Made by a program: the position numbers and the translations under genes. Under the pieces are notes generated by a model that did not search any database, was not told the origin of the DNA, and saw only the letters and a list, made by a program, of their open reading frames with translations. Of a DNA stretch of 6,331 nt, positions 1-6,331 are shown in pieces; the stretch's first letter is position 1, and each line of letters starts with the position of its first letter. The stretch spans positions 1 to 6,331 of the IMG/VR virus record IMGVR_UViG_3300008807_000711; one strand, given 5' to 3'. This DNA is from a virus.

Positions 1-99
1 AGAGCGCGGACTCGTGCCCAGCTGGTGCTACTGCTGGCACTGCCAGTGACGGCTCCAGTACTTGTACCTGTTCTGCTGGCCTTCGCCCGTATAACGGGC
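1..99. repeat. Terminal direct repeat, left copy (identical to 6233-6331); circularisation overlap
   Basis: Base-by-base comparison: agagcgcggactcgtgcccagctggtgc...cgtataacgggc is present at both window ends in the same orientation. Confidence 0.97.
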
Positions 100-1169
100 A
101 ATGCGTGTCTACTCCAGCATGTCCTGCTGGGCAACACGACGAGGGCGGTGCTTGCGTCCCCGATAACTGCAAGCCCAACGAGACACGCGTTAACGGCATT
201 TGTGTCCCTGAGCCTCCGTGCCCAGCTGGTGAGACTCGCGTTAATGGCGTCTGCAAAAAGGCTAACTGTAAGGCGGGCAGCACTGGCAGTTACTACGACA
301 TGACCAGTCCGACGTCTGTTGCTACCTGTGCGAATAGTGATGGCAACTACTGCACCATGGTCGTTCAGTGGACTATGACCGTTCCCGACACGCCTCCTCG
401 TTATTACGGCATAGGCTACTTAACTGGTGCTAGCTGTGCGCCTCGCCCTGATGGCCCCTTGAGCCCTTCTGATCCTGAGAAGGATCCCGACCCTAACAAG
501 CCTGAGCCAACAAAACCAGACCCTAACAAGCCTGGCAGTAAGCCCGGTGATGCTCCGGGTTCTCCTCAGCCTGGCACCCCTCCTGGCTCAGATGGCAAGT
601 GCCCTCCTGGTACATACAAGTCGAATGGCGCTTGTTATCCCAACGACCCCCCAAAGCAGCCTCCTGATAACGACGGCAAGTGCCCGTCTGGTTATGTCAA
701 GGTGGGTAGTGAGTGCATTCCTTTGAAGCCGCGTCCTGATGATTCGGATGGCAATGGTGTGGACGACAAAGACGAGGATAAAGATCGCAGTTCATTTGGT
801 GGTCAGTGCGATGCCGTGGCATGTGAGGGTGACGCCATCCAGTGCGCCATTGCTCGCGATCAATACCGCCGTTCTTGCCAGCTCATGGACAAGGAAAGCG
901 CGGAATCGCAGCTCTACGCGGCGAACAAGGGCAAAGAAGGCAATCAGACCGGCAGCCTTCCCGGCAATGAAACCATCAGCCTGCAAGGTCGCATCGATAC
1001 ATCGGATGCGCTCGGCGGCGGTTCCTGCTTCGGTGATCTGAACATTACCGTCTGGAATCAGGCAGTAACGCTGCCGCTCTCCAGCCTCTGTCAATACCTC
1101 GCCATGCTCGGCAATATCCTGGTTGCCGTCTCCATGCTCATGGCTGCTCGCATCGTCACAAGGGGGTAA
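3..1169 (+). CDS. C-terminal part of the pIII-like adsorption/minor coat protein: Cys-rich modules, Pro-rich linker, conserved C-terminal domain with membrane anchor
   Basis: The frame is open from position 3, so the track start at 105 (GTG) is an artefact of linearisation. Layout: Cys-rich CPAG modules; PDPNKP-type Pro-rich linker; two DGKCP.G..K.G..C.P repeats; an acidic stretch; then FGGQCDAVACEGDAIQCAIARDQYRRSCQ and a C-terminal hydrophobic anchor LAMLGNILVAVSMLMAARIVTRG. It sits immediately upstream of the pVI-like and Zot genes. Stop TAA 1167-1169. Confidence 0.85.
   Translation, partial: SADSCPAGATAGTASDGSSTCTCSAGLRPYNGQCVSTPACPAGQHDEGGACVPDNCKPNETRVNGICVPEPPCPAGETRVNGVCKKANCKAGSTGSYYDMTSPTSVATCANSDGNYCTMVVQWTMTVPDTPPRYYGIGYLTGASCAPRPDGPLSPSDPEKDPDPNKPEPTKPDPNKPGSKPGDAPGSPQPGTPPGSDGKCPPGTYKSNGACYPNDPPKQPPDNDGKCPSGYVKVGSECIPLKPRPDDSDGNGVDDKDEDKDRSSFGGQCDAVACEGDAIQCAIARDQYRRSCQLMDKESAESQLYAANKGKEGNQTGSLPGNETISLQGRIDTSDALGGGSCFGDLNITVWNQAVTLPLSSLCQYLAMLGNILVAVSMLMAARIVTRG
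180..281 (+). repeat. Two tandem 51-nt (17-aa) units inside the adsorption protein (ETRVNGICVPEPPCPAG / ETRVNGVCKKANCKAGS)
   Basis: gagacacgcgttaacggcatttgtg at 180 versus gagactcgcgttaatggcgtctgca at 231. In frame, period 51 nt. Confidence 0.7.
489..534 (+). repeat. Exact 16-nt direct repeat gaccctaacaagcctg at 489-504 and 519-534 (period 30 nt; PDPNKP x2) in the Pro-rich linker
   Basis: Both copies read directly from the sequence. Confidence 0.9.
591..752 (+). repeat. Two tandem 81-nt (27-aa) Cys-pair units (DGKCPPGTYKSNGACYPNDPPKQPPDN / DGKCPSGYVKVGSECIPLKPRPDDS)
   Basis: gatggcaagtgccctcctggt at 591 versus gacggcaagtgcccgtctggt at 672. In frame, with conserved Cys spacing. Confidence 0.7.
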
Positions 1170-1172
1170 CCC

Positions 1173-1472
1173 ATGCCAATGTTCGTTGCTGCCATCGGCG
1201 GCATGTTGATTAACCTCGTCGGCACCCTGGCTGGTCGAATCCTTATTGCCCTGGGTATCGGTGTCATCACTTACACCGGCGTTTCTACATCGTTGGATTG
1301 GATGAAGTCCGGCGCAGTGTCCGCGCTCGGTGGCCTGCCTGCTGACATGCTCGGCCTGATTGCCTTCATGAAAGTTGGCGTCTGCATCAGCATCATCACT
1401 AGCGCCATTGCCGCTCGCGCCATCATCAATGGCATCAGCGGCGATAGTTTTAAAAAGTGGGTTCTCAAATGA
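1173..1472 (+). CDS. pVI-like minor coat / assembly membrane protein (DUF2523-type small hydrophobic protein)
   Basis: 99 aa, Gly/Ile/Ala-rich with several hydrophobic segments (MFVAAIGGMLINLVGTLAGRILIALGIGVITY..., LGLIAFMKVGVCISIITSAIAA). AGGGGG Shine-Dalgarno at 1161-1166. Canonical position between the adsorption protein and Zot. Confidence 0.8.
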   Translation: MPMFVAAIGGMLINLVGTLAGRILIALGIGVITYTGVSTSLDWMKSGAVSALGGLPADMLGLIAFMKVGVCISIITSAIAARAIINGISGDSFKKWVLK

Positions 1473-1600
1473 GCGTTAACACGGTTTCCCCTCAATTGGC
1501 CCGATGGTGCATGCCTCAGTGGCGTCAGTATTGCGGCGGTGTACATCTGCTGCTGGCGGCATCTAACGCGATCATCATTCAGCGCTGGGGCAAACAATGA
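1469..1600 (+). CDS. Candidate 43-aa micro-ORF bridging the pVI-like gene and zot (MSVNTVSPQLARWCMPQWRQYCGGVHLLLAASNAIIIQRWGKQ)
   Basis: Its ATG (1469-1471) overlaps the upstream TGA (1470-1472) as ATGA. Its TGA (1598-1600) overlaps the zot ATG (1597-1599) as ATGA. It exactly fills the otherwise non-coding 124-nt gap. Below the track length cutoff. No recognisable motif. Confidence 0.35.
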   Translation: MSVNTVSPQLARWCMPQWRQYCGGVHLLLAASNAIIIQRWGKQ

Positions 1601-2778
1601 TTTACCTTACTACCGGCGCGAACGGCGCAGGCAAAACGCTGCTTACCCTAAAAGACGTTCGCGCGCAGCAGCTCAAGGAAAATCGTCCGGTCTACTATCA
1701 CGGCTTCGAAATGGACGAGGTCAAAGCGGCCGAATTCGGCTGGCAGAAGTTCGACCCCAAGGATTGGCAAAGCTTGCCCGATGGGTCCATCTGCATCATG
1801 GACGAGTGCCAGAACGAATTCCCATTGCGGCGCTCTGGCTCCGATGTCCCGGATTACATCCAGGCTATTGCGCAGTTCAGGCGCAAGCGCGGTTTCGACT
1901 TCTGGATGATCTGCCCGCACCCATCGTTGATCGATGTGTTCGTCCGTCGCCTGATCGATAAGCCATCATGGCACCGCCACCTGAAACGCGCCTTCGGTGC
2001 CGATGTGGTCAGCGTGCTGCGCTTTTCCGCGCCTGACATGAAGTGCGAAGAACCCGGCGCAGGCGCTCGCGGTGAGGTGTCGATGGTGGCCTATCCCAAG
2101 GAGGTGTATAGCTGGTACCGCTCCGCCAGCCTTCACACCGGGAAAAAGAAAATCCCGCGCGCCGTGTTCGTCTTGGCTGCCTGCGCCATCGCTGTGCCTT
2201 CTGCGATGTACTTTGCAATCACCGGTGTTTACAGCAATGCCACAAAGCAGGCCAAAGCCGCTGAGCCTGCGCCAGTTGCAAGCGCCCCAGGTGCCCCAGG
2301 TCAAAACGCTCGCCAGGTTAGCCAGGTCATGACCGCTGCTGAGTACGTGGACGCTCGCACCGCTCGCCTGAAAGACTTCCCGCACACTGCCCCGGCCTAC
2401 GACGACGTCACCAAGCCCACCGAAGCGCCATACCCTGCCGCATGCGTCCAGATGGGCAAGACCTGCAAGTGCTACACCCAGCAAGCAACGCTACTGCAGG
2501 TGTCCGGCGCTGTCTGCGTCCAGATCGTGCATCAGGGCTTCTTCATGGACTGGAAAACGGCCCAGCGCGGCGAATTCAGCCCAAGGGATAGGGGCGACTA
2601 CCGGCACCAGCGCGAAGCGCTGCCACAGGCCCAGCAAGTGGCCCAGCAAGTGGCCCAGGTGGACCCGGTTCGCACCGTCCCGGCTCCGATGCCTGCCGCT
2701 CGTCCTGAGCCGCCGCATAGCCAATACCTTCAGGGCCTTGCTGCTCGCAATGCCCAGGTGCGATCAAGTTTGCAGTGA
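1597..2778 (+). CDS. zot: Zot-family / pI-like phage assembly ATPase
   Basis: N-terminal Walker A, MIYLTTGANGAGKTL. Walker B-like hydrophobic strand plus acidic pair, SICIMDECQ (1789-1812). Single TM helix AVFVLAACAIAVPSAMYFAITGV (about 2161-2229) after a KKK stretch. Pro/Ala/Gln-rich periplasmic C-terminal domain. 393 aa, a typical pI/Zot architecture. Confidence 0.93.
   Translation: MIYLTTGANGAGKTLLTLKDVRAQQLKENRPVYYHGFEMDEVKAAEFGWQKFDPKDWQSLPDGSICIMDECQNEFPLRRSGSDVPDYIQAIAQFRRKRGFDFWMICPHPSLIDVFVRRLIDKPSWHRHLKRAFGADVVSVLRFSAPDMKCEEPGAGARGEVSMVAYPKEVYSWYRSASLHTGKKKIPRAVFVLAACAIAVPSAMYFAITGVYSNATKQAKAAEPAPVASAPGAPGQNARQVSQVMTAAEYVDARTARLKDFPHTAPAYDDVTKPTEAPYPAACVQMGKTCKCYTQQATLLQVSGAVCVQIVHQGFFMDWKTAQRGEFSPRDRGDYRHQREALPQAQQVAQQVAQVDPVRTVPAPMPAARPEPPHSQYLQGLAARNAQVRSSLQ
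2629..2661 (+). repeat. 12-nt tandem repeat gcccagcaagtg x2 plus a partial third copy (gcccaggtg), encoding AQQVAQQVAQV in the Zot C-terminal domain
   Basis: Read directly from the sequence. The in-frame period is a multiple of 3. Confidence 0.9.
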
Positions 2779-2779
2779 G

Positions 2780-2992
2780 TCAGCCGCGCCGCGATTGTTC
2801 GCGCGCGTCGGCTTCTTCTTCAAGCATCAGCACCCACCGGTAACCCTCTGGCGCTTCGGGTCGGCTGAATGGTGATGGCCCGCCGTTCTTTTCTTCCTTG
2901 TCGGCAAAGAACAGCAGATAGGCCGCTTGAATCAGGCCCATGCCGGACAGCGCCAGCAGCGCGTAATAGGTGAAGTAAGGCAGTTGCTTCAT
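2780..2992 (-). CDS. Small membrane protein, unknown function (70 aa, N-terminal TM helix, acidic C-terminus)
   Basis: MKQLPYFTYYALLALSGMGLIQAAYLLFFADKEEKNGG.... Codon usage is strongly G/C-ending (many CTG, GCG, GGC), consistent with real coding. It lies downstream of the repressor on the same strand. No clear Shine-Dalgarno. Confidence 0.55.
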   Translation of the reverse strand: MKQLPYFTYYALLALSGMGLIQAAYLLFFADKEEKNGGPSPFSRPEAPEGYRWVLMLEEEADAREQSRRG

Positions 2993-3016
2993 GCGCCGGA
3001 AGGTAGCACATGCACT

Positions 3017-3535
3017 TCACTGAAAGACAACGGGGACCCGGACCGGAGACCTTGTGTCGTAGGTTTGGGGCGGGGGTATGGGGCCGCAGGGCACCATGGA
3101 GGACCGTTGTGCAACCCGTACCCCATGAAAAAGGCCCCTTAAATCGGGGCCTTCTTCATAATATTTATACATCGTATCTAGCCACCGCACTATGTCTGGC
3201 ACTCGCTCACAGGTGGCTGAATAGATCTCCTGCGCGCTTACTCCAGCGGAAGCGATCACCCCGCCAGTCGCTACCAAGAACTTTCCCAGCACTCGCGCTA
3301 GCTGGTCTCCCTTCTCTGTCCCTTCGTGGCGCTCGATATGCGCTCTAACCAGCGTTTGTATCGGGTCAAGGCCAGCAATGGCCGCAAGTCTCGCTTGATC
3401 TTCAGGCGGGCAAGGCTTTGCGCCGCTTTTCCACATCGAAACCATAGATGGCGGAATGCCTAGCGCTTTGCCAAGCGCTGACACAGTTCCGGTCTTTTGT
3501 AAAGCCCGGTCGATTAGCTCGGGTATTTGGCTCAT
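3017..3535 (-). CDS. HTH transcriptional regulator, Cro/CI-type phage repressor
   Basis: Starting at ATG 3535: MSQIPELIDRALQKTGTVSALGKALGIPPSMVSMWKSGAKPCPPEDQARLAAIAGLDP. This is the classic helix-turn-helix pattern G(T/S)xxxLAxxLGxxxxxVSxWxxG with a following P and a second helix. It is divergent from the Rep operon across an operator-like array. AAGGT lies 8 nt upstream of the ATG. I preferred 3535 over the track start at 3556 because 3556 sits inside the first operator copy. The last 35 or so codons lie beyond an internal hairpin and may be a fortuitous extension. Confidence 0.8.
   Translation of the reverse strand: MSQIPELIDRALQKTGTVSALGKALGIPPSMVSMWKSGAKPCPPEDQARLAAIAGLDPIQTLVRAHIERHEGTEKGDQLARVLGKFLVATGGVIASAGVSAQEIYSATCERVPDIVRWLDTMYKYYEEGPDLRGLFHGVRVAQRSSMVPCGPIPPPQTYDTRSPVRVPVVFQ
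3067..3091 (+). other. Canonical G-quadruplex motif on the plus strand (GGGG c GGGGG tat GGGG ccgca GGG)
   Basis: Four G-tracts of at least 3 nt with loops of 1, 3 and 5 nt, read directly. It is on the strand sharing the sense of the structural genes, which is the packaged ssDNA strand in known inoviruses. Function unknown. Confidence 0.4.
3125..3159. terminator. Strong GC-rich hairpin, candidate bidirectional intrinsic terminator or ssDNA structural signal
   Basis: atgaaAaaggcccc-ttaaatc-ggggccttCttcat: an 8-bp perfect stem (3131-3138 / 3146-3153), a 7-nt loop, and 5 more bp after one mismatch. On the minus strand the stem is followed by TTTTTCAT, on the plus strand by CTTCTTCATAATATTTAT. 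It lies inside the 3-prime part of the repressor ORF. Confidence 0.5.
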
Positions 3536-3540
3536 GTTGC

Positions 3541-3601
3541 TACCTTTTTGGTACAAACGCTACCAAGTTGGTAATACCTATTTGGTATGACCTTTTTGGT
3601 A
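3541..3601. promoter_or_regulatory. Array of four 13-bp palindromic TACC-N5-GGTA sites (operators or origin iterons) in the divergent repressor/Rep control region
   Basis: TACCTTTTTGGTA 3541-3553, TACCAAGTTGGTA 3561-3573 (perfect palindrome), TACCTATTTGGTA 3575-3587, GACCTTTTTGGTA 3589-3601. Spacings are 20, 14 and 14 nt. All four share TTGGTA. The array lies between the divergent start codons at 3535 (minus) and 3587/3623 (plus). A possible sigma70-like pair is TTGGTA 3548-3553 and TAATAC 3572-3577 (18-nt spacer), which is speculative. Confidence 0.6.
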
Positions 3602-3895
3602 ACGACCGAACTTTACACCGCTATGGCTTCGCCTGTCACCACCTACACCATCGACTGCCCTCCGGGCATGCTCCACGCCCGTAAGACGCGCAAGCGCTTC
3701 ACCAGCGTGTCTGCCTTTGATGGCTATATCGGTGAACTGCGCCGCGTCGGTCGTGTGGTCGATTTCGTTTCGCCTACACATGCCATCCTGGCTCCGCTCG
3801 ACCTCCCTTGTCAGTCGGGGGTGCTGTTCATGTTCGCTCAGGCAGCGCCCACGGTGGGCGGCAAGCGAAGCGCCGCCGCCGGGGGTGTTGCATGA
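3587..3895 (+). CDS. Hypothetical protein, first gene of the plus-strand operon, translationally coupled to Rep (102 aa; alternative start ATG 3623)
   Basis: G/C-ending codon bias typical of the coding genes here (ACC, GAC, TGC, GGC, CTC, CGC...). Its stop TGA 3893-3895 overlaps the Rep ATG 3892-3894 (ATGA). The ATG at 3587 lies inside operator copies 3/4 and has no Shine-Dalgarno. No recognisable motif. Confidence 0.5.
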   Translation: MTFLVTTELYTAMASPVTTYTIDCPPGMLHARKTRKRFTSVSAFDGYIGELRRVGRVVDFVSPTHAILAPLDLPCQSGVLFMFAQAAPTVGGKRSAAAGGVA

Positions 3896-4863
3896 GCGAT
3901 TTCATGGCCCCCCGTCCTGTAACACGGGGGGAAAGTCCGAAGGACCAGCAGGTCGCAAAAATCGACTGGCTGAACTGCACATTTGCAGAACCTGCAATGT
4001 CTGTCGAAGGCTTTGTGGCCTTGCTGGGGCGCATGCTGGGCCGTCCAGTCTCTGGCATCGCTGATCGCGGCATGCTCGGTTTTGATAGCTCCGTGAAGCT
4101 CTTTGCGCGCCATGGCTCCCTGACCAGTCCCATCGGCTGCATTGCCTTTGGCGGTGAATCACAGCGCGGTCGCTGGCTGTTCCAGTTGACCGGCGGCGGC
4201 TGTCAATTCGTGCGCGATTGGGCTGGCCTTCGTGACCTCCTCGAAAGCCTCGATGCAAAGCTAACCCGCGTCGATTTGGCTGTTGATTTTCTCGAAGGGG
4301 AACACACTGTCGAGGAGGCCGTTACCTTGTATCAAGCGGGCGGCTTTCAGCTTGCTGGGCGTTCACCTTCAAGCCGCATTGACGGTGATTGGATTGACGG
4401 CCAGCAGGGCCGTACGCTGTACATCGGCAAAGCCCAAAACGGCAAGATGCTTCGCGTCTACGAAAAGGGCCGCCAGCTTGGCGACCCCGATAGCGAATGG
4501 ACCCGCTTTGAAGTCCAGATAGGCAGCAGGGACCGCGTTATCCCTTTCGACGTTCTCACGGACCGAGACGCCTTTTTCGCTGGCTGCTATCCCGCCTTGG
4601 CTTCCTTCATTGATGTAGCTGCACAGGCTATCCCAACGCTTACCAAGGGCGGCGAAGTCACGCTGGCTCATCTCGTCTATCACGCGAAGCGCTGTTACGG
4701 CAAGTTGTTTGGGACTTTGCTGGAACAGACCAACGCAACCAACGCCGATCTGGTCGAGGAAGTCCGCATTGTCGGTATCCCGCGCCGGGTCAATCTTTCC
4801 AGTCTGGCGGCTGGCGTCACTTGGGCCGACGTTCAGGCCCAGCACCAAAGGGTATCGCTATGA
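3892..4863 (+). CDS. Rolling-circle replication initiation protein, Rep_trans / RstA-like (gene II analogue)
   Basis: Motifs LTRVDLAVDF, TLYIGKAQNGKMLRVYEKGRQLG and WTRFEVQIGSRD match my recollection of the Rep_trans family pattern (RxDxAxD ... Y.G......R.Y.K ... R.E.Q). I chose the start at 3892 (MSDFMAPRP...) because of ATGA coupling to the upstream ORF. The 28 codons upstream from the track start at 3808 (GTG, Arg-rich) overlap that ORF. Confidence 0.9.
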   Translation: MSDFMAPRPVTRGESPKDQQVAKIDWLNCTFAEPAMSVEGFVALLGRMLGRPVSGIADRGMLGFDSSVKLFARHGSLTSPIGCIAFGGESQRGRWLFQLTGGGCQFVRDWAGLRDLLESLDAKLTRVDLAVDFLEGEHTVEEAVTLYQAGGFQLAGRSPSSRIDGDWIDGQQGRTLYIGKAQNGKMLRVYEKGRQLGDPDSEWTRFEVQIGSRDRVIPFDVLTDRDAFFAGCYPALASFIDVAAQAIPTLTKGGEVTLAHLVYHAKRCYGKLFGTLLEQTNATNADLVEEVRIVGIPRRVNLSSLAAGVTWADVQAQHQRVSL

Positions 4864-5165
4864 GCAAAATGCAAATTGTGGGTTTCGAGGGTTCTTCTGG
4901 CGTTGGCAAGACCAGCGGCAAGGCTTACGCAATGGGCCAGATTCACACTCTGGCAACACTGGCCGAACCGTTCAGCGAGAACGGCATTTCCAAGGGCCAG
5001 ATGGGCACCACCTACCGCTGCCCTCTCCCTTTGGTCGAGAAGATCAAGCATCTCCAGCCGCCCTTTGCTGCTGACGTCGATGTTCGGCCCGTCATGCGTT
5101 TTGGCAAGCGCGAGGACGAAGTTTTCGACATCCTGCCTGTCACTACGGCCAAAGCTGCTGCGTGA
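4860..5165 (+). CDS. Putative ssDNA-binding protein (gene V analogue), 101 aa
   Basis: Position directly after Rep, with an ATGA overlap (ATG 4860-4862 / TGA 4861-4863). AAGGG lies 9 nt upstream. Small, soluble and Gly/Lys-containing: MSKMQIVGFEGSSGVGKTSGKAYAMGQIH.... The assignment rests on synteny and size only. Confidence 0.65.
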   Translation: MSKMQIVGFEGSSGVGKTSGKAYAMGQIHTLATLAEPFSENGISKGQMGTTYRCPLPLVEKIKHLQPPFAADVDVRPVMRFGKREDEVFDILPVTTAKAAA

Positions 5166-5371
5166 TGGAATTCGACCTCGCATTTTTCGCCCAGCGCGTC
5201 GCCATGATCGCGTGCCTTTCCGGCTTCGTCGGCGGTCTGCTGTTCGTGCTGGTGTATGGCGCAGTAGTCGCCCTCGCTGATCGTCTGCGCTCTCGCGCCA
5301 GCACAGCCGAGCGCATCGCCCAGGCACGCATTCGGGCGCAATCCATCATGCGGGCCATGCCACGTGGCTGA
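5165..5371 (+). CDS. Small membrane protein (68 aa; possible pVII/pIX-type minor virion or assembly protein)
   Basis: One TM helix, VAMIACLSGFVGGLLFVLVYGAVVAL, followed by an Arg-rich tail. Its start overlaps the SSB stop (TGATG; GTG 5162 is an alternative). It sits between SSB and the major coat gene. Confidence 0.55.
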   Translation: MEFDLAFFAQRVAMIACLSGFVGGLLFVLVYGAVVALADRLRSRASTAERIAQARIRAQSIMRAMPRG

Positions 5372-5576
5372 CCCAACAGTCATCGAATGCCCCAGCACCT
5401 GCGCGGTGACTGTGGTGCACGAATTAAGCCTTCCGCCTCTGCAGCTCACTGCGGAAGAGGGAGCAGCCATCGCGGGCGCCGTCCTCGCGATCTGGGCCGT
5501 TGGCTATGCCTTCCGCATGGCTATACGCGCCTTGAACATCGACGGCAATTCATCAACCACCAATGAGGAAAACTGA
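5364..5576 (+). CDS. Small membrane protein (70 aa from GTG 5364; start uncertain)
   Basis: TM helix AAIAGAVLAIWAVGYAFRMAI. Overlaps the previous ORF by 8 nt and ends 1 nt before the coat-gene ATG. No clear Shine-Dalgarno for the GTG. Confidence 0.5.
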   Translation: MADPTVIECPSTCAVTVVHELSLPPLQLTAEEGAAIAGAVLAIWAVGYAFRMAIRALNIDGNSSTTNEEN

Positions 5577-5577
5577 C

Positions 5578-5835
5578 ATGAACGTGATCGAAAAAACCCG
5601 CGCTGTTGCATCGCAAACCATGGATTGGGCTAAGTCCAAGACTGCCACTGTTGTCGCTATCGGTACCGCTGGCGCCGCTGCATTTCAGCCTGCTCATGCC
5701 GCCGCAATCGACGTTGCCGCCGTGACCACCGATATCGCCGCCCAGGCTGCCCCTGTCGCCGCTATCGGCGCAGCAGTGCTCCTGCTGTACGTGGGCATCA
5801 AGGCATTTAAGTGGGTGCGCAAGGCTCTGTCCTAA
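5578..5835 (+). CDS. Major coat protein precursor (pVIII-like), 85 aa, predicted 44-aa mature peptide
   Basis: GAGGAA Shine-Dalgarno 7 nt upstream of ATG 5578. The leader ends ...AAAFQPAHA / AAIDV. The mature peptide AAIDVAAVTTDIAAQAAPVAAIGAAVLLLYVGIKAFKWVRKALS has an acidic N-terminus, a hydrophobic core and a basic C-terminus (K, K, R, K), the signature of inovirus major coat proteins. Confidence 0.85.
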   Translation: MNVIEKTRAVASQTMDWAKSKTATVVAIGTAGAAAFQPAHAAAIDVAAVTTDIAAQAAPVAAIGAAVLLLYVGIKAFKWVRKALS

Positions 5836-5917
5836 GCCCTCACTGCATGTGCTCCCTGACCGGCCGGCAGGGGCCTTGCAAAAGCTCACGCGGTGGGCTT
5901 CTTCAAGGTGCAAATAA

Positions 5918-5977
5918 ATGGGCCTCTTCGTCATCCTCGCAATCCTCGGTGCAGCATGGTTCATCTTTACCGCCTGA
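5918..5977 (+). CDS. Candidate 19-aa hydrophobic mini-ORF (MGLFVILAILGAAWFIFTA)
   Basis: AAGGTG Shine-Dalgarno at 5905-5910, 7 nt upstream of ATG 5918. The peptide is entirely hydrophobic. Its 3-prime end overlaps the adsorption-protein start (5956) by 22 nt. Too short for the ORF track. Confidence 0.3.
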   Translation: MGLFVILAILGAAWFIFTA

Positions 5978-6331
5978 TTTGCGCCCTTGTGCTTGCTTCC
6001 GTCGCTTCCTTGGCGTTTGCCGATGGCGGGCCATTTCCTGCCACTCCGGGCGCCTGGGATTCGTCCGTCTGCAATCCTGGCAACTACCCTGGCACCTCTG
6101 GCGGTGAGGGCGTAACTAAAGCCTGGGTCTGTAAGGCCAGCACGAATGGCAGTTCACGAAGCTGTGGCTGGTCGTATTCGTCTGCAGACTACGGCCCTGA
6201 TTACTACTTCGCGGGCCAGTGCTCGCAGTTCAAGAGCGCGGACTCGTGCCCAGCTGGTGCTACTGCTGGCACTGCCAGTGACGGCTCCAGTACTTGTACC
6301 TGTTCTGCTGGCCTTCGCCCGTATAACGGGC
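5956..6331 (+). CDS. N-terminal part of the pIII-like adsorption/minor coat protein (runs off the window end and continues at position 3 after circularisation)
   Basis: ATG at 5956 gives MVHLYRLICALVLASVASLAFA/DGG, a classic Sec signal peptide (basic n-region, hydrophobic core, AFA cleavage motif). The frame stays open to the window end. 6235 (=3+6232) is in phase with 5956, so it joins the 3..1169 frame. The joined ORF is 1446 nt, 481 aa. It is absent from the supplied ORF track because it has no in-window stop. Confidence 0.8.
   Translation, partial: MVHLYRLICALVLASVASLAFADGGPFPATPGAWDSSVCNPGNYPGTSGGEGVTKAWVCKASTNGSSRSCGWSYSSADYGPDYYFAGQCSQFKSADSCPAGATAGTASDGSSTCTCSAGLRPYNG
6233..6331. repeat. 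Terminal direct repeat, right copy (identical to 1-99)
   Basis: Same as the left copy. Offset 6232 nt. Confidence 0.97.

Follow-up and report, generated by a model that had tools for sequence, protein, structure and literature searches.

Does a short viral contig with identical ends represent a complete phage genome and, if it does, from which lineage and host was it drawn? This question is raised by IMG/VR record IMGVR_UViG_3300008807_000711, a viral DNA stretch that was analysed over its full 6,331 nt and is called the window below. A reading of its sequence alone, made without database searches, had proposed a complete, circularly closed inovirus-like genome of 6,232 bp from a possibly undescribed lineage. 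Such genomes are abundant, modular and mostly uncultured, and an inovirus census counted 10,295 sequences in 5,964 species (PMC6813254). The analysis described here indicates that the window is very probably one full copy of a 6,232-nt circular temperate inovirus genome plus a 99-nt assembly overlap, and that this genome joins modules which its relatives carry in other combinations.

Closure of the contig

Positions 1-99 and 6233-6331 are an identical direct repeat, as the sequence-only reading had noted; the longest terminal overlap is exactly 99 nt, and an exact match of this length cannot arise by chance. Taking out one copy leaves a unit of 6,232 bp with a G+C content of 58.8%. In the circularised unit a single open reading frame (ORF) runs from 5893 (GTG) or 5956 (ATG) to 6232 and on from 1 to 1169, for 502 or 481 codons. 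Its ATG-start form, which begins MVHLYRL, is the 481-aa protein that the earlier reading had expected the joined ends to restore, and its alignment with homologues bears this out from end to end. The joined product, a pIII-like adsorption protein, aligns in a single high-scoring segment pair (HSP) over residues 1-481 with its homologues in L001 and L002, and over residues 1-238, with the repeat-encoded residues 93-126 included, with those in L016 and L005. Here L001-L003 are IMG/VR contigs (L002 is IMGVR_UViG_3300024934_000006), and L016 is 2636416192_000001, a prophage of Acidovorax delafieldii DSM 64.

Elsewhere in the unit no piece of 20 nt or longer from the 99-mer was found, and a 15-nt piece of it reappears at position 217. 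Because no longer recurrence exists and pIII is colinear, the join is real rather than a false closure through an internal repeat. Related contigs also closed as circles, with overlaps of 88 and 125 nt, so the repeat itself is best seen as an assembler artefact and not as a biological feature; the earlier reading had supposed a de Bruijn assembler with k=99, which may be the source. The unit size agrees with those of relatives bounded by attachment (att) sites, at 6,200 and 6,281 bp. In addition, the contig crosses the phage attachment site (attP, 3155-3182) unbroken and its ends fall at an arbitrary point within pIII, a combination that is expected of a circular template and mildly favours one. 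Since the attP is uninterrupted, the unit contains no host DNA.

Identity of the genome as an inovirus

The 13 predicted genes were scanned against Pfam at curated cut-offs (gathering scores), with PHROG profiles as a second library (Table 1). The sequence-only reading had listed a full minimal inovirus set, and every gene class in that list was matched by hidden Markov models (HMMs); it had also named the absence of Zot/pI and Rep_trans matches as an outcome that would count against it, and both markers scored above cut-off. The Rep_trans initiator reached 91.4 bits against a cut-off of 29.6 over profile positions 1-193 of 201, and the pVIII coat precursor reached 53.9 bits against a Phage_Coat_B cut-off of 23.5. 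Together with the PHROG matches and the size of the att-bounded relatives, these results support a complete circular inovirus genome of 6,232 bp.

The features by which Inoviridae are recognized are present. The circular unit is small (within ~5-15 kb) and has the canonical gene order: orf90, Rep_trans and a candidate single-stranded DNA (ssDNA)-binding protein (SSB); two small membrane proteins, pVIII, pIII, pVI, orf43 and pI/Zot; and a reverse gene for a 70-aa membrane protein. After this last gene come an intergenic region, in which a structured element lies with a hairpin and attP, and then a reverse helix-turn-helix (HTH) regulator with a four-site operator array. The Zot-type pI (PF05707) has a Walker A motif (GANGAGKT), a Walker B motif (CIMDE) and a single membrane segment (residues 186-211) C-terminal to the ATPase domain. 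Structural proteins of 30-90 aa that each have one membrane segment are present too, among them a pVIII-type major coat protein whose layout comprises a signal peptide ending in AHA, an acidic N-terminus, a hydrophobic core forming one membrane segment and a basic C-terminus. Hydrophobicity profiles agree with the expected topologies, with a signal and a C-terminal anchor in pIII and one segment each in orf69, orf70 and pVIII, and Shine-Dalgarno (SD) motifs back the starts at 3892, 4860, 1173, 5578 (GAGGA) and 3535.

A dif-like attachment site and the likely host

The 15-mer TAGATACGATGTATA occurs once in the window (3166-3180, minus strand), remains the only match when one mismatch is allowed, and was found in 0 of 200 shuffles. 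It is identical to the XerC arm and centre of the Acidovorax dif site, corresponding to positions 3-17 of the dif predicted in the literature for Acidovorax sp. JS42, ACTAGATACGATGTATATTATGTTAAAT; it differs by one mismatch each from the dif sites of A. citrulli and Delftia, and by two from that of Verminephrobacter. A pair of inverted dif-like sites in the style of CTXphi was considered and set aside on the basis of this single match.

Relatives show the same sequence in use. The A. delafieldii prophage has a host SDR gene on one side and a UDP-GlcNAc 2-epimerase gene on the other. Direct repeats of the 15-nt TAGATACGATGTATA, spaced by exactly 6,200 bp, bound it, and the right-hand copy runs on as TGTATATTATGTTAAAT, which by comparison with E. 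coli dif is the central region and XerD arm of a canonical site. L002 is bounded by the same 15-mer, and dif-like sites stand at the prophage ends in L019 and L026. No integrase or recombinase was found among the 13 predicted genes with Pfam and PHROGs, no unassigned coding space is left in the 6.2-kb unit, and a tRNA scan of the window, run as a test for tRNA-type integration, was negative. The window therefore has the attributes of an element that exploits host Xer recombination, namely a dif-like attP built on the XerC arm and centre and the lack of a phage-encoded integrase. In attL and attR hybrids the host dif side would be of the TTATGTTAAAT type. The earlier reading had suggested searching bacterial genomes for prophage copies and the host; this search returned Comamonadaceae relatives, including Acidovorax at dif, and the most likely host is Acidovorax or a close Comamonadaceae relative.

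The att core lies on the minus strand in the window (3166-3180) and in L027 (2264-2276), and on the plus strand in L016 (5243/11443), L002 and L004. L027 is the IMG/VR contig IMGVR_UViG_3300034682_000207. Since this orientation separates phages with a Rep_trans initiator (the window and L027) from those with an HUH-type Rep (L016 and L002), attP appears to travel with the regulation and replication module.

Relatives and mosaic ancestry

Among deposited phages the genome has no close kin. A megablast search of 50,697 phage records gave no match, blastn against deposited phages recovered ~170 nt of Rep in Ralstonia RSS-type phages only, and a search of PLSDB plasmids returned the Ralstonia Rep fragment only. 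[quoted passage not shown] Metagenomic and genomic collections gave a different picture, with IMG/VR contigs at 51-93% aa identity in Zot, and with integrated relatives in GTDB that include A. delafieldii DSM 64 (81%) and an Acidovorax metagenome-assembled genome (MAG; 91%, partial), as well as Comamonas, Delftia, Verminephrobacter and Hylemonella. The suggestion of an undescribed lineage thus holds with respect to isolates and ICTV phages, none of which is close (at most 39% aa), and does not hold with respect to IMG/VR and GTDB, which contain relatives with Zot at 80-93% aa.

The DNA identity threshold for inovirus species is 95% (PMC6813254), applied here as at least 95% over most of the genome. 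The best genome match, L002, reaches 83% identity over 54% of the genome, and the metagenome contig L039 (Ga0160182_115573) reaches 83% over 36%. The window therefore represents a new species; its lineage, made up of inoviruses that integrate at dif and probably infect Acidovorax, is uncultured but has already been catalogued.

The two halves of the genome have different closest relatives. One half, with the structural and assembly genes, starts at ~5165, crosses the join and extends to 2992-3137; at the nucleotide level it is 79-88% identical to L001-L003, to which the half that encodes the regulator, Rep and SSB gives no alignment. This second half is 75-76% identical (nt) to L027 and L028, in which Rep (83% aa in L027) and the SSB candidate (72-79% aa in both) have homologues and the structural genes are unrelated to those of the window (Zot 27% aa). 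At the same place in L016 (5684-7300) lies a non-homologous replication module, made up of a Phage_DNA_bind gVp-type SSB followed by an HUH REP_ORF2-G2P initiator. L039 contains the same Rep module as the window (Rep 96% aa) together with the same structural module, at 83% nt identity over window positions 3763-5996; because it carries both joined, the combination of a Rep_trans module with this structural module recurs. As judged from these alignments, the genome is shown to be a mosaic that would have arisen by whole-module exchange, in which Rep_trans/RstB took the place of HUH-Rep/gVp on a shared structural backbone.

Some of the related contigs have features of their own. L027 has a diverged or duplicated pIII C-terminus (33-731, 4728-6068) and L036 contains a 66-aa ORF twice (99-299, 6089-6289), which suggests that these contigs hold more than one unit or are tandem or mixed-strain assemblies. 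L018 (JAFDVK010000059.1; 7,151 bp with a 125-nt terminal repeat) is a circular relative with Zot at 64-65% aa identity that was binned in an 'Acidobacteria' MAG. Its closest relatives are in Comamonadaceae, so the contig probably comes from a free phage and was put in the wrong bin, and does not point to an acidobacterial host.

A conserved structured element next to attP

Shortly after the assembly module, and adjoining attP, lies a 110-nt element (3018-3127) that was found with nhmmer and a covariance model in 20 loci, with either type of Rep and also in phages that otherwise have no DNA similarity to the window. Examples include L002 (6042-6151), L016 (11203-11312), L027 (2081-2190), L029 (5493-5602, minus strand) and L031 (5883-5993), among others. 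It is co-oriented with the phage genes in 19/19 loci and always lies in the non-coding stretch between the assembly and replication modules. Covariation supports a three-helix model, in which 93.5% of cells are paired, compared with 30-54% in slid controls, and double changes occur in 10 of 24 pairs; none of 500 shuffles reached the covariation score, which was obtained on an alignment itself fitted to the model. The presence of G-T/G-U pairs makes the structure strand-specific. Thermodynamic z-scores are unremarkable (+0.2 to -2.1), so stability alone gives no support. RNAalifold on a plain MAFFT alignment gave a poor consensus in which indels shift the stems, and a hand-specified structure with covariance-model re-alignment was used instead.

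The element is absent from Rfam, and a match there to asX2 (E=0.96) was rejected as chance-level, not being repeated in nine homologous loci. A reading of 3015-3137 as the coding tail of the regulator was also rejected as the main explanation: the block is kept in L016 and L002 outside any regulator ORF, and its compensatory stem changes and indels that are not multiples of three argue against coding. The mapped packaging signal of Xanthomonas phages is a 20-26-nt hairpin inside gII, a model that does not fit the 110-nt element. The element is independent of Rep type, of assembly module, and of how far away attP lies and in which orientation, and this speaks against its being a plus-strand origin, a packaging signal tied to one module or a Xer accessory site. 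A complementary- (minus-) strand origin is the role we favour, another ssDNA signal that depends on the host being a further candidate. As a tentative proposal, the element may be an undescribed, horizontally exchanged, strand-specific signal of dif-integrating Comamonadaceae inoviruses, most plausibly a minus-strand origin recognized by the host, that moves independently of the replication and assembly modules.

Alternative explanations

Several observations weigh against the window being a complete genome of a temperate, dif-integrating inovirus. The exact Zot protein is not on record in a 153-billion gene-position index, and no identical genome was found in scans of IMG/VR, GTDB and JGI metagenomes, so that this genome has been seen once; neither that index, queried with Zot, nor the GTDB and JGI scans revealed an integrated copy of it. 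The XerD-side arm of attP is degenerate, and the att core is opposite to that of L016 and L002 relative to the structural genes, in agreement with L027, which shares the Rep module. The SSB candidate, the weakest of the gene assignments, is named from PHROG matches of ~1e-6 only, and neither the Pfam scan nor a PDB sequence search gave a match. No secretin (pIV) gene was found among the genes of the unit, so export would depend on a host secretin.

The alternative that best survives is that the contig derives from at least two head-to-tail prophage copies at dif rather than from a free circular molecule. Such an array would likewise assemble into a contig of one unit, with a k-mer overlap and with attP intact inside it, and tandem arrays at dif are common for CTXphi-type phages. 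The relatives of the window are clearly integrative, and the inovirus census records tandemly integrated prophages (PMC6813254). Against this origin, the junctions between array and chromosome would, if assemblers behave as we suppose, branch the assembly graph at attP, where the contig is unbroken, and no host sequence is attached to the contig. A tandem array is thus unlikely as the source; a free circle and a tandem prophage would both yield this contig, and the genome content is the same either way.

It is also possible in principle that the window is a defective or satellite element, such as a cryptic prophage remnant or a TLC/RS1-like satellite, instead of an autonomous phage. The missing secretin gene, the several small ORFs of unknown function and the single sighting of the genome would fit such an element. 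A pIV gene is missing from many autonomous inoviruses; CTXphi is one of them, and it uses the host EpsD. Furthermore, the core replication, coat and assembly genes are all intact, and both pVI and orf70rev are under purifying selection in comparisons with relatives, making a satellite very improbable. The idea that the ends were joined falsely, at a repeat inside the Cys-rich pIII gene, and that the true element is longer or linear might draw on the repeated Cys-rich motifs of pIII and the fragment at 217, and is effectively refuted by the lack of any longer repeat fragment, the colinearity of pIII over 481 residues in one HSP, the fit of 6,232 bp to the att-bounded relatives and the presence of each expected gene exactly once.

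Other features of the window

The coordinates of all features are collected in Table 1.

Table 1. Genes, sites and repeats of the 6,331-nt window, in order of position
Feature	Position	Strand	Description
99-nt terminal direct repeat, first copy	1..99		Inside pIII gene; assembly overlap, identical to 6233-6331
pIII-like adsorption protein, 3' part	1..1169	+	Cys-rich repeats, Pro/Asp-rich linker, conserved C-terminal domain, membrane anchor at residues 454-479
pVI-like minor coat protein	1173..1472	+	99 aa, multi-pass hydrophobic; DUF2523 6.4e-18, 65.5 bits vs cut-off 22.1; phrog_1242 1e-21
orf43	1469..1600	+	43 codons, between pVI and pI; ATGA start/stop overlap at each end
pI/Zot morphogenesis ATPase	1597..2778	+	393 aa; PF05707 2e-14, 54 bits vs cut-off 20.3; phrog_197 1e-63
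orf70rev	2780..2992	-	70-aa single-pass membrane protein, antisense to structural operon
HTH (Cro/CI-type) regulator ORF	3017..3535	-	172 aa; phrog_638 4.8e-16; weak HTH_3, HTH_31 and P22_Cro matches
Structured cis element	3018..3127	+	110 nt; P1 8-bp stem with inner hairpin, P2 5-bp stem, P2a 8-bp hairpin
GC hairpin	3128..3151	-	GGCCCC-N7-GGGGCC, then T5 run; terminator-like, downstream of regulator; kept in L016, L002, L027
dif-like attP	3155..3182	-	XerC arm and centre TAGATACGA-TGTATA at 3166-3180; XerD-side arm AATATTATGAA degenerate
Putative operator array	3541..3601		Four tandem 13-bp palindromes (T/G)ACC-N5-GGTA between divergent regulator and Rep operon
orf90	3623..3895	+	Upstream of Rep, ATGA overlap with Rep; 55% aa match in L002, L029
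Rep_trans rolling-circle initiator, RstA-like	3892..4863	+	323 aa; PF02486 7.8e-26; phrog_453 5.7e-80; SD GGGGG
Candidate ssDNA-binding protein, RstB-like	4860..5165	+	101 aa; directly after Rep; phrog_929 'RstB' 8.6e-7, phrog_4994 1.7e-6
orf69	5162..5371	+	Small single-pass membrane protein; 67-84% aa in relatives; pVII/pIX-position minor coat candidate
orf70	5364..5576	+	Small single-pass membrane protein, minor coat candidate; phrog_4644 6.3e-10; weak Phage_Coat_B match
pVIII major coat protein precursor	5578..5835 (alternative start 5563)	+	Phage_Coat_B PF05356 1.8e-14; phrog_2374 8.7e-17
pIII-like adsorption protein, 5' part	5956..6232	+	Signal peptide and N-terminal Cys-rich domain; phrog_4352 4.7e-25; hydrophobic residues 1-26
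99-nt terminal direct repeat, second copy	6233..6331		Encodes pIII residues 93-126

The homologous HTH part of the regulator covers residues ~1-100, and its SD motif (AAGG) lies upstream of the ATG at 3535. There is no stop codon before attP, and the tail of the ORF runs through attP and the terminator-like hairpin into the structured element; read-through of the regulator across attP is also seen in L027 (2163-2645, minus strand) and L036 (2837-3319, plus strand). Integration at dif would swap the C-terminal tail of the regulator, and termination at the hairpin would leave a non-stop transcript. The palindromes between the divergent regulator and Rep operon (repeat family D1) give seven strand-matches, all in 3541-3601 and nowhere else in the genome, compared with 0.28 expected, and are read as a putative operator array for the HTH regulator. 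Scans of the window for sigma-70 promoters and terminators gave nothing above shuffled expectation.

Among the small genes, the codon pattern of orf70rev shows it to be a real gene. Its product is 98% identical (aa) in L001-L003, with 12-23 synonymous and 1 non-synonymous codon differences, and the changes relative to relatives fall mainly on third codon positions of the minus frame, as predicted for strong purifying selection; its role could lie in immunity, exclusion or modification of the host. The pVI protein is 95-96% identical to its homologues in L001-L003 (31-37 synonymous and 3-4 non-synonymous codon differences), and orf70 is 81-94% identical (aa) in relatives. The 124-nt stretch that forms the orf43 insertion (1473-1595) is present in L003 alone among the relatives, where orf43 shows 13 synonymous and 5 non-synonymous codon differences. 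None of orf43, orf70rev, orf90 and orf69 matched a family in the Pfam and PHROG scans, and a PDB sequence search with orf90 gave no match.

The inter-domain linker of pIII, at about 380-700, is Pro/Asp/Lys-rich in the window (…PSDPEKDPDPNKPEPTKPDPNKPGSKPGDAPGSPQPGTPPGSDG…), and in the A. delafieldii prophage (L016, 8700-9330) its place is taken by a long repeat rich in Gly, Thr and Ser. Both proteins contain the N-terminal Cys-rich motif C-P-x-G-E-T-R-V-N-G-x-C in duplicate.

Proposed life cycle and significance

From what is known of these protein families, the Rep_trans initiator would nick the replicative form for rolling-circle synthesis, and the RstB-like protein would coat the resulting plus strand. 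The pI/Zot protein, together with a secretin that the host would need to supply because the phage has no pIV gene, may then extrude DNA coated by pVIII and capped by the minor proteins. The phage may insert at the chromosomal dif through host XerC/XerD acting on its dif-like attP, and the HTH regulator would control the divergent Rep operon through the TACC-N5-GGTA operators.

With this record an uncultured lineage of Comamonadaceae inoviruses gains a genome that is complete and apparently intact. The match between attP and dif gives a confident host prediction, and the genome is a clear example of whole-module exchange. A 6.2-kb genome can be synthesised, and from it a filamentous phage that grows in culture could be obtained for the first time for Acidovorax, some members of which are plant pathogens. 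The finding is solid but ordinary, and it leaves knowledge of inovirus biology unchanged. The structured element is the one feature able to open a specific question; it is of interest because, to our knowledge, integrative inoviruses have as yet poorly mapped packaging signals and minus-strand origins.

Comparison with known systems

The closest systems are L002 and the A. delafieldii prophage L016, which share with the window the gene order, the structural module (79-88% nt), Zot at 81-92% aa, pVI at 85-96% aa, the 15-nt att core, the 110-nt cis element and a unit size of 6.2-6.3 kb; the coat protein of L002 is a 100% local match. They differ in that only 46-54% of the genome aligns, far under the 95% level, and in that attP is inverted relative to the structural genes. 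In addition, L016 has an HUH REP_ORF2-G2P initiator with a gVp-type SSB where the window has Rep_trans with an RstB-like protein, and a Gly-rich pIII linker where that of the window is Pro/Asp-rich. On the replication side, L027, L039 and L041 (metagenome contig Ga0160183_119424) share the Rep_trans and SSB module (Rep 83-96% aa; 75-90% nt), the attP orientation and the read-through of the regulator across attP. The structural module of L027 is unrelated, however (Zot 27% aa), and L039 and L041 are fragments below species-level identity.

Among isolates, Ralstonia phages PE226, those of the RSS1 type and p12J are likewise betaproteobacterial inoviruses of 5.5-7.3 kb that lack a secretin, have the same gene order overall and encode a Rep_trans initiator and a Zot-like pI, but their Zot (33-36% aa) and Rep (37-39% aa) are distant, their hosts belong to another family and they are not of the same genus by usual measures. 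RSS-type phages are reported to integrate at dif via XerC/D (PMC4471427). Phage XacF1 also uses host XerC/D for integration at dif, and its attP lies inside a regulator ORF (ORF12) that is split on integration (PMC5666396). The regulator ORF of the window likewise spans attP, although XacF1 and Cf1c have no detectable DNA similarity to the window and a different host.

The resemblance to CTXphi (Affertcholeramvirus) is at the family level only. Both have an RstA-type Rep_trans followed by an RstB-like gene, a divergent repressor and a Zot-type pI, lack an integrase and a secretin, and are associated with Xer/dif integration. In CTXphi two inverted sites fold into an ssDNA attP, whereas the window contains a single dif-like site and no toxin genes. 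Because its attP is intact and it encodes no recombinase of its own, the window follows the pattern of the Xer-exploiting phages, as do XacF1, the RSS types and CTXphi.

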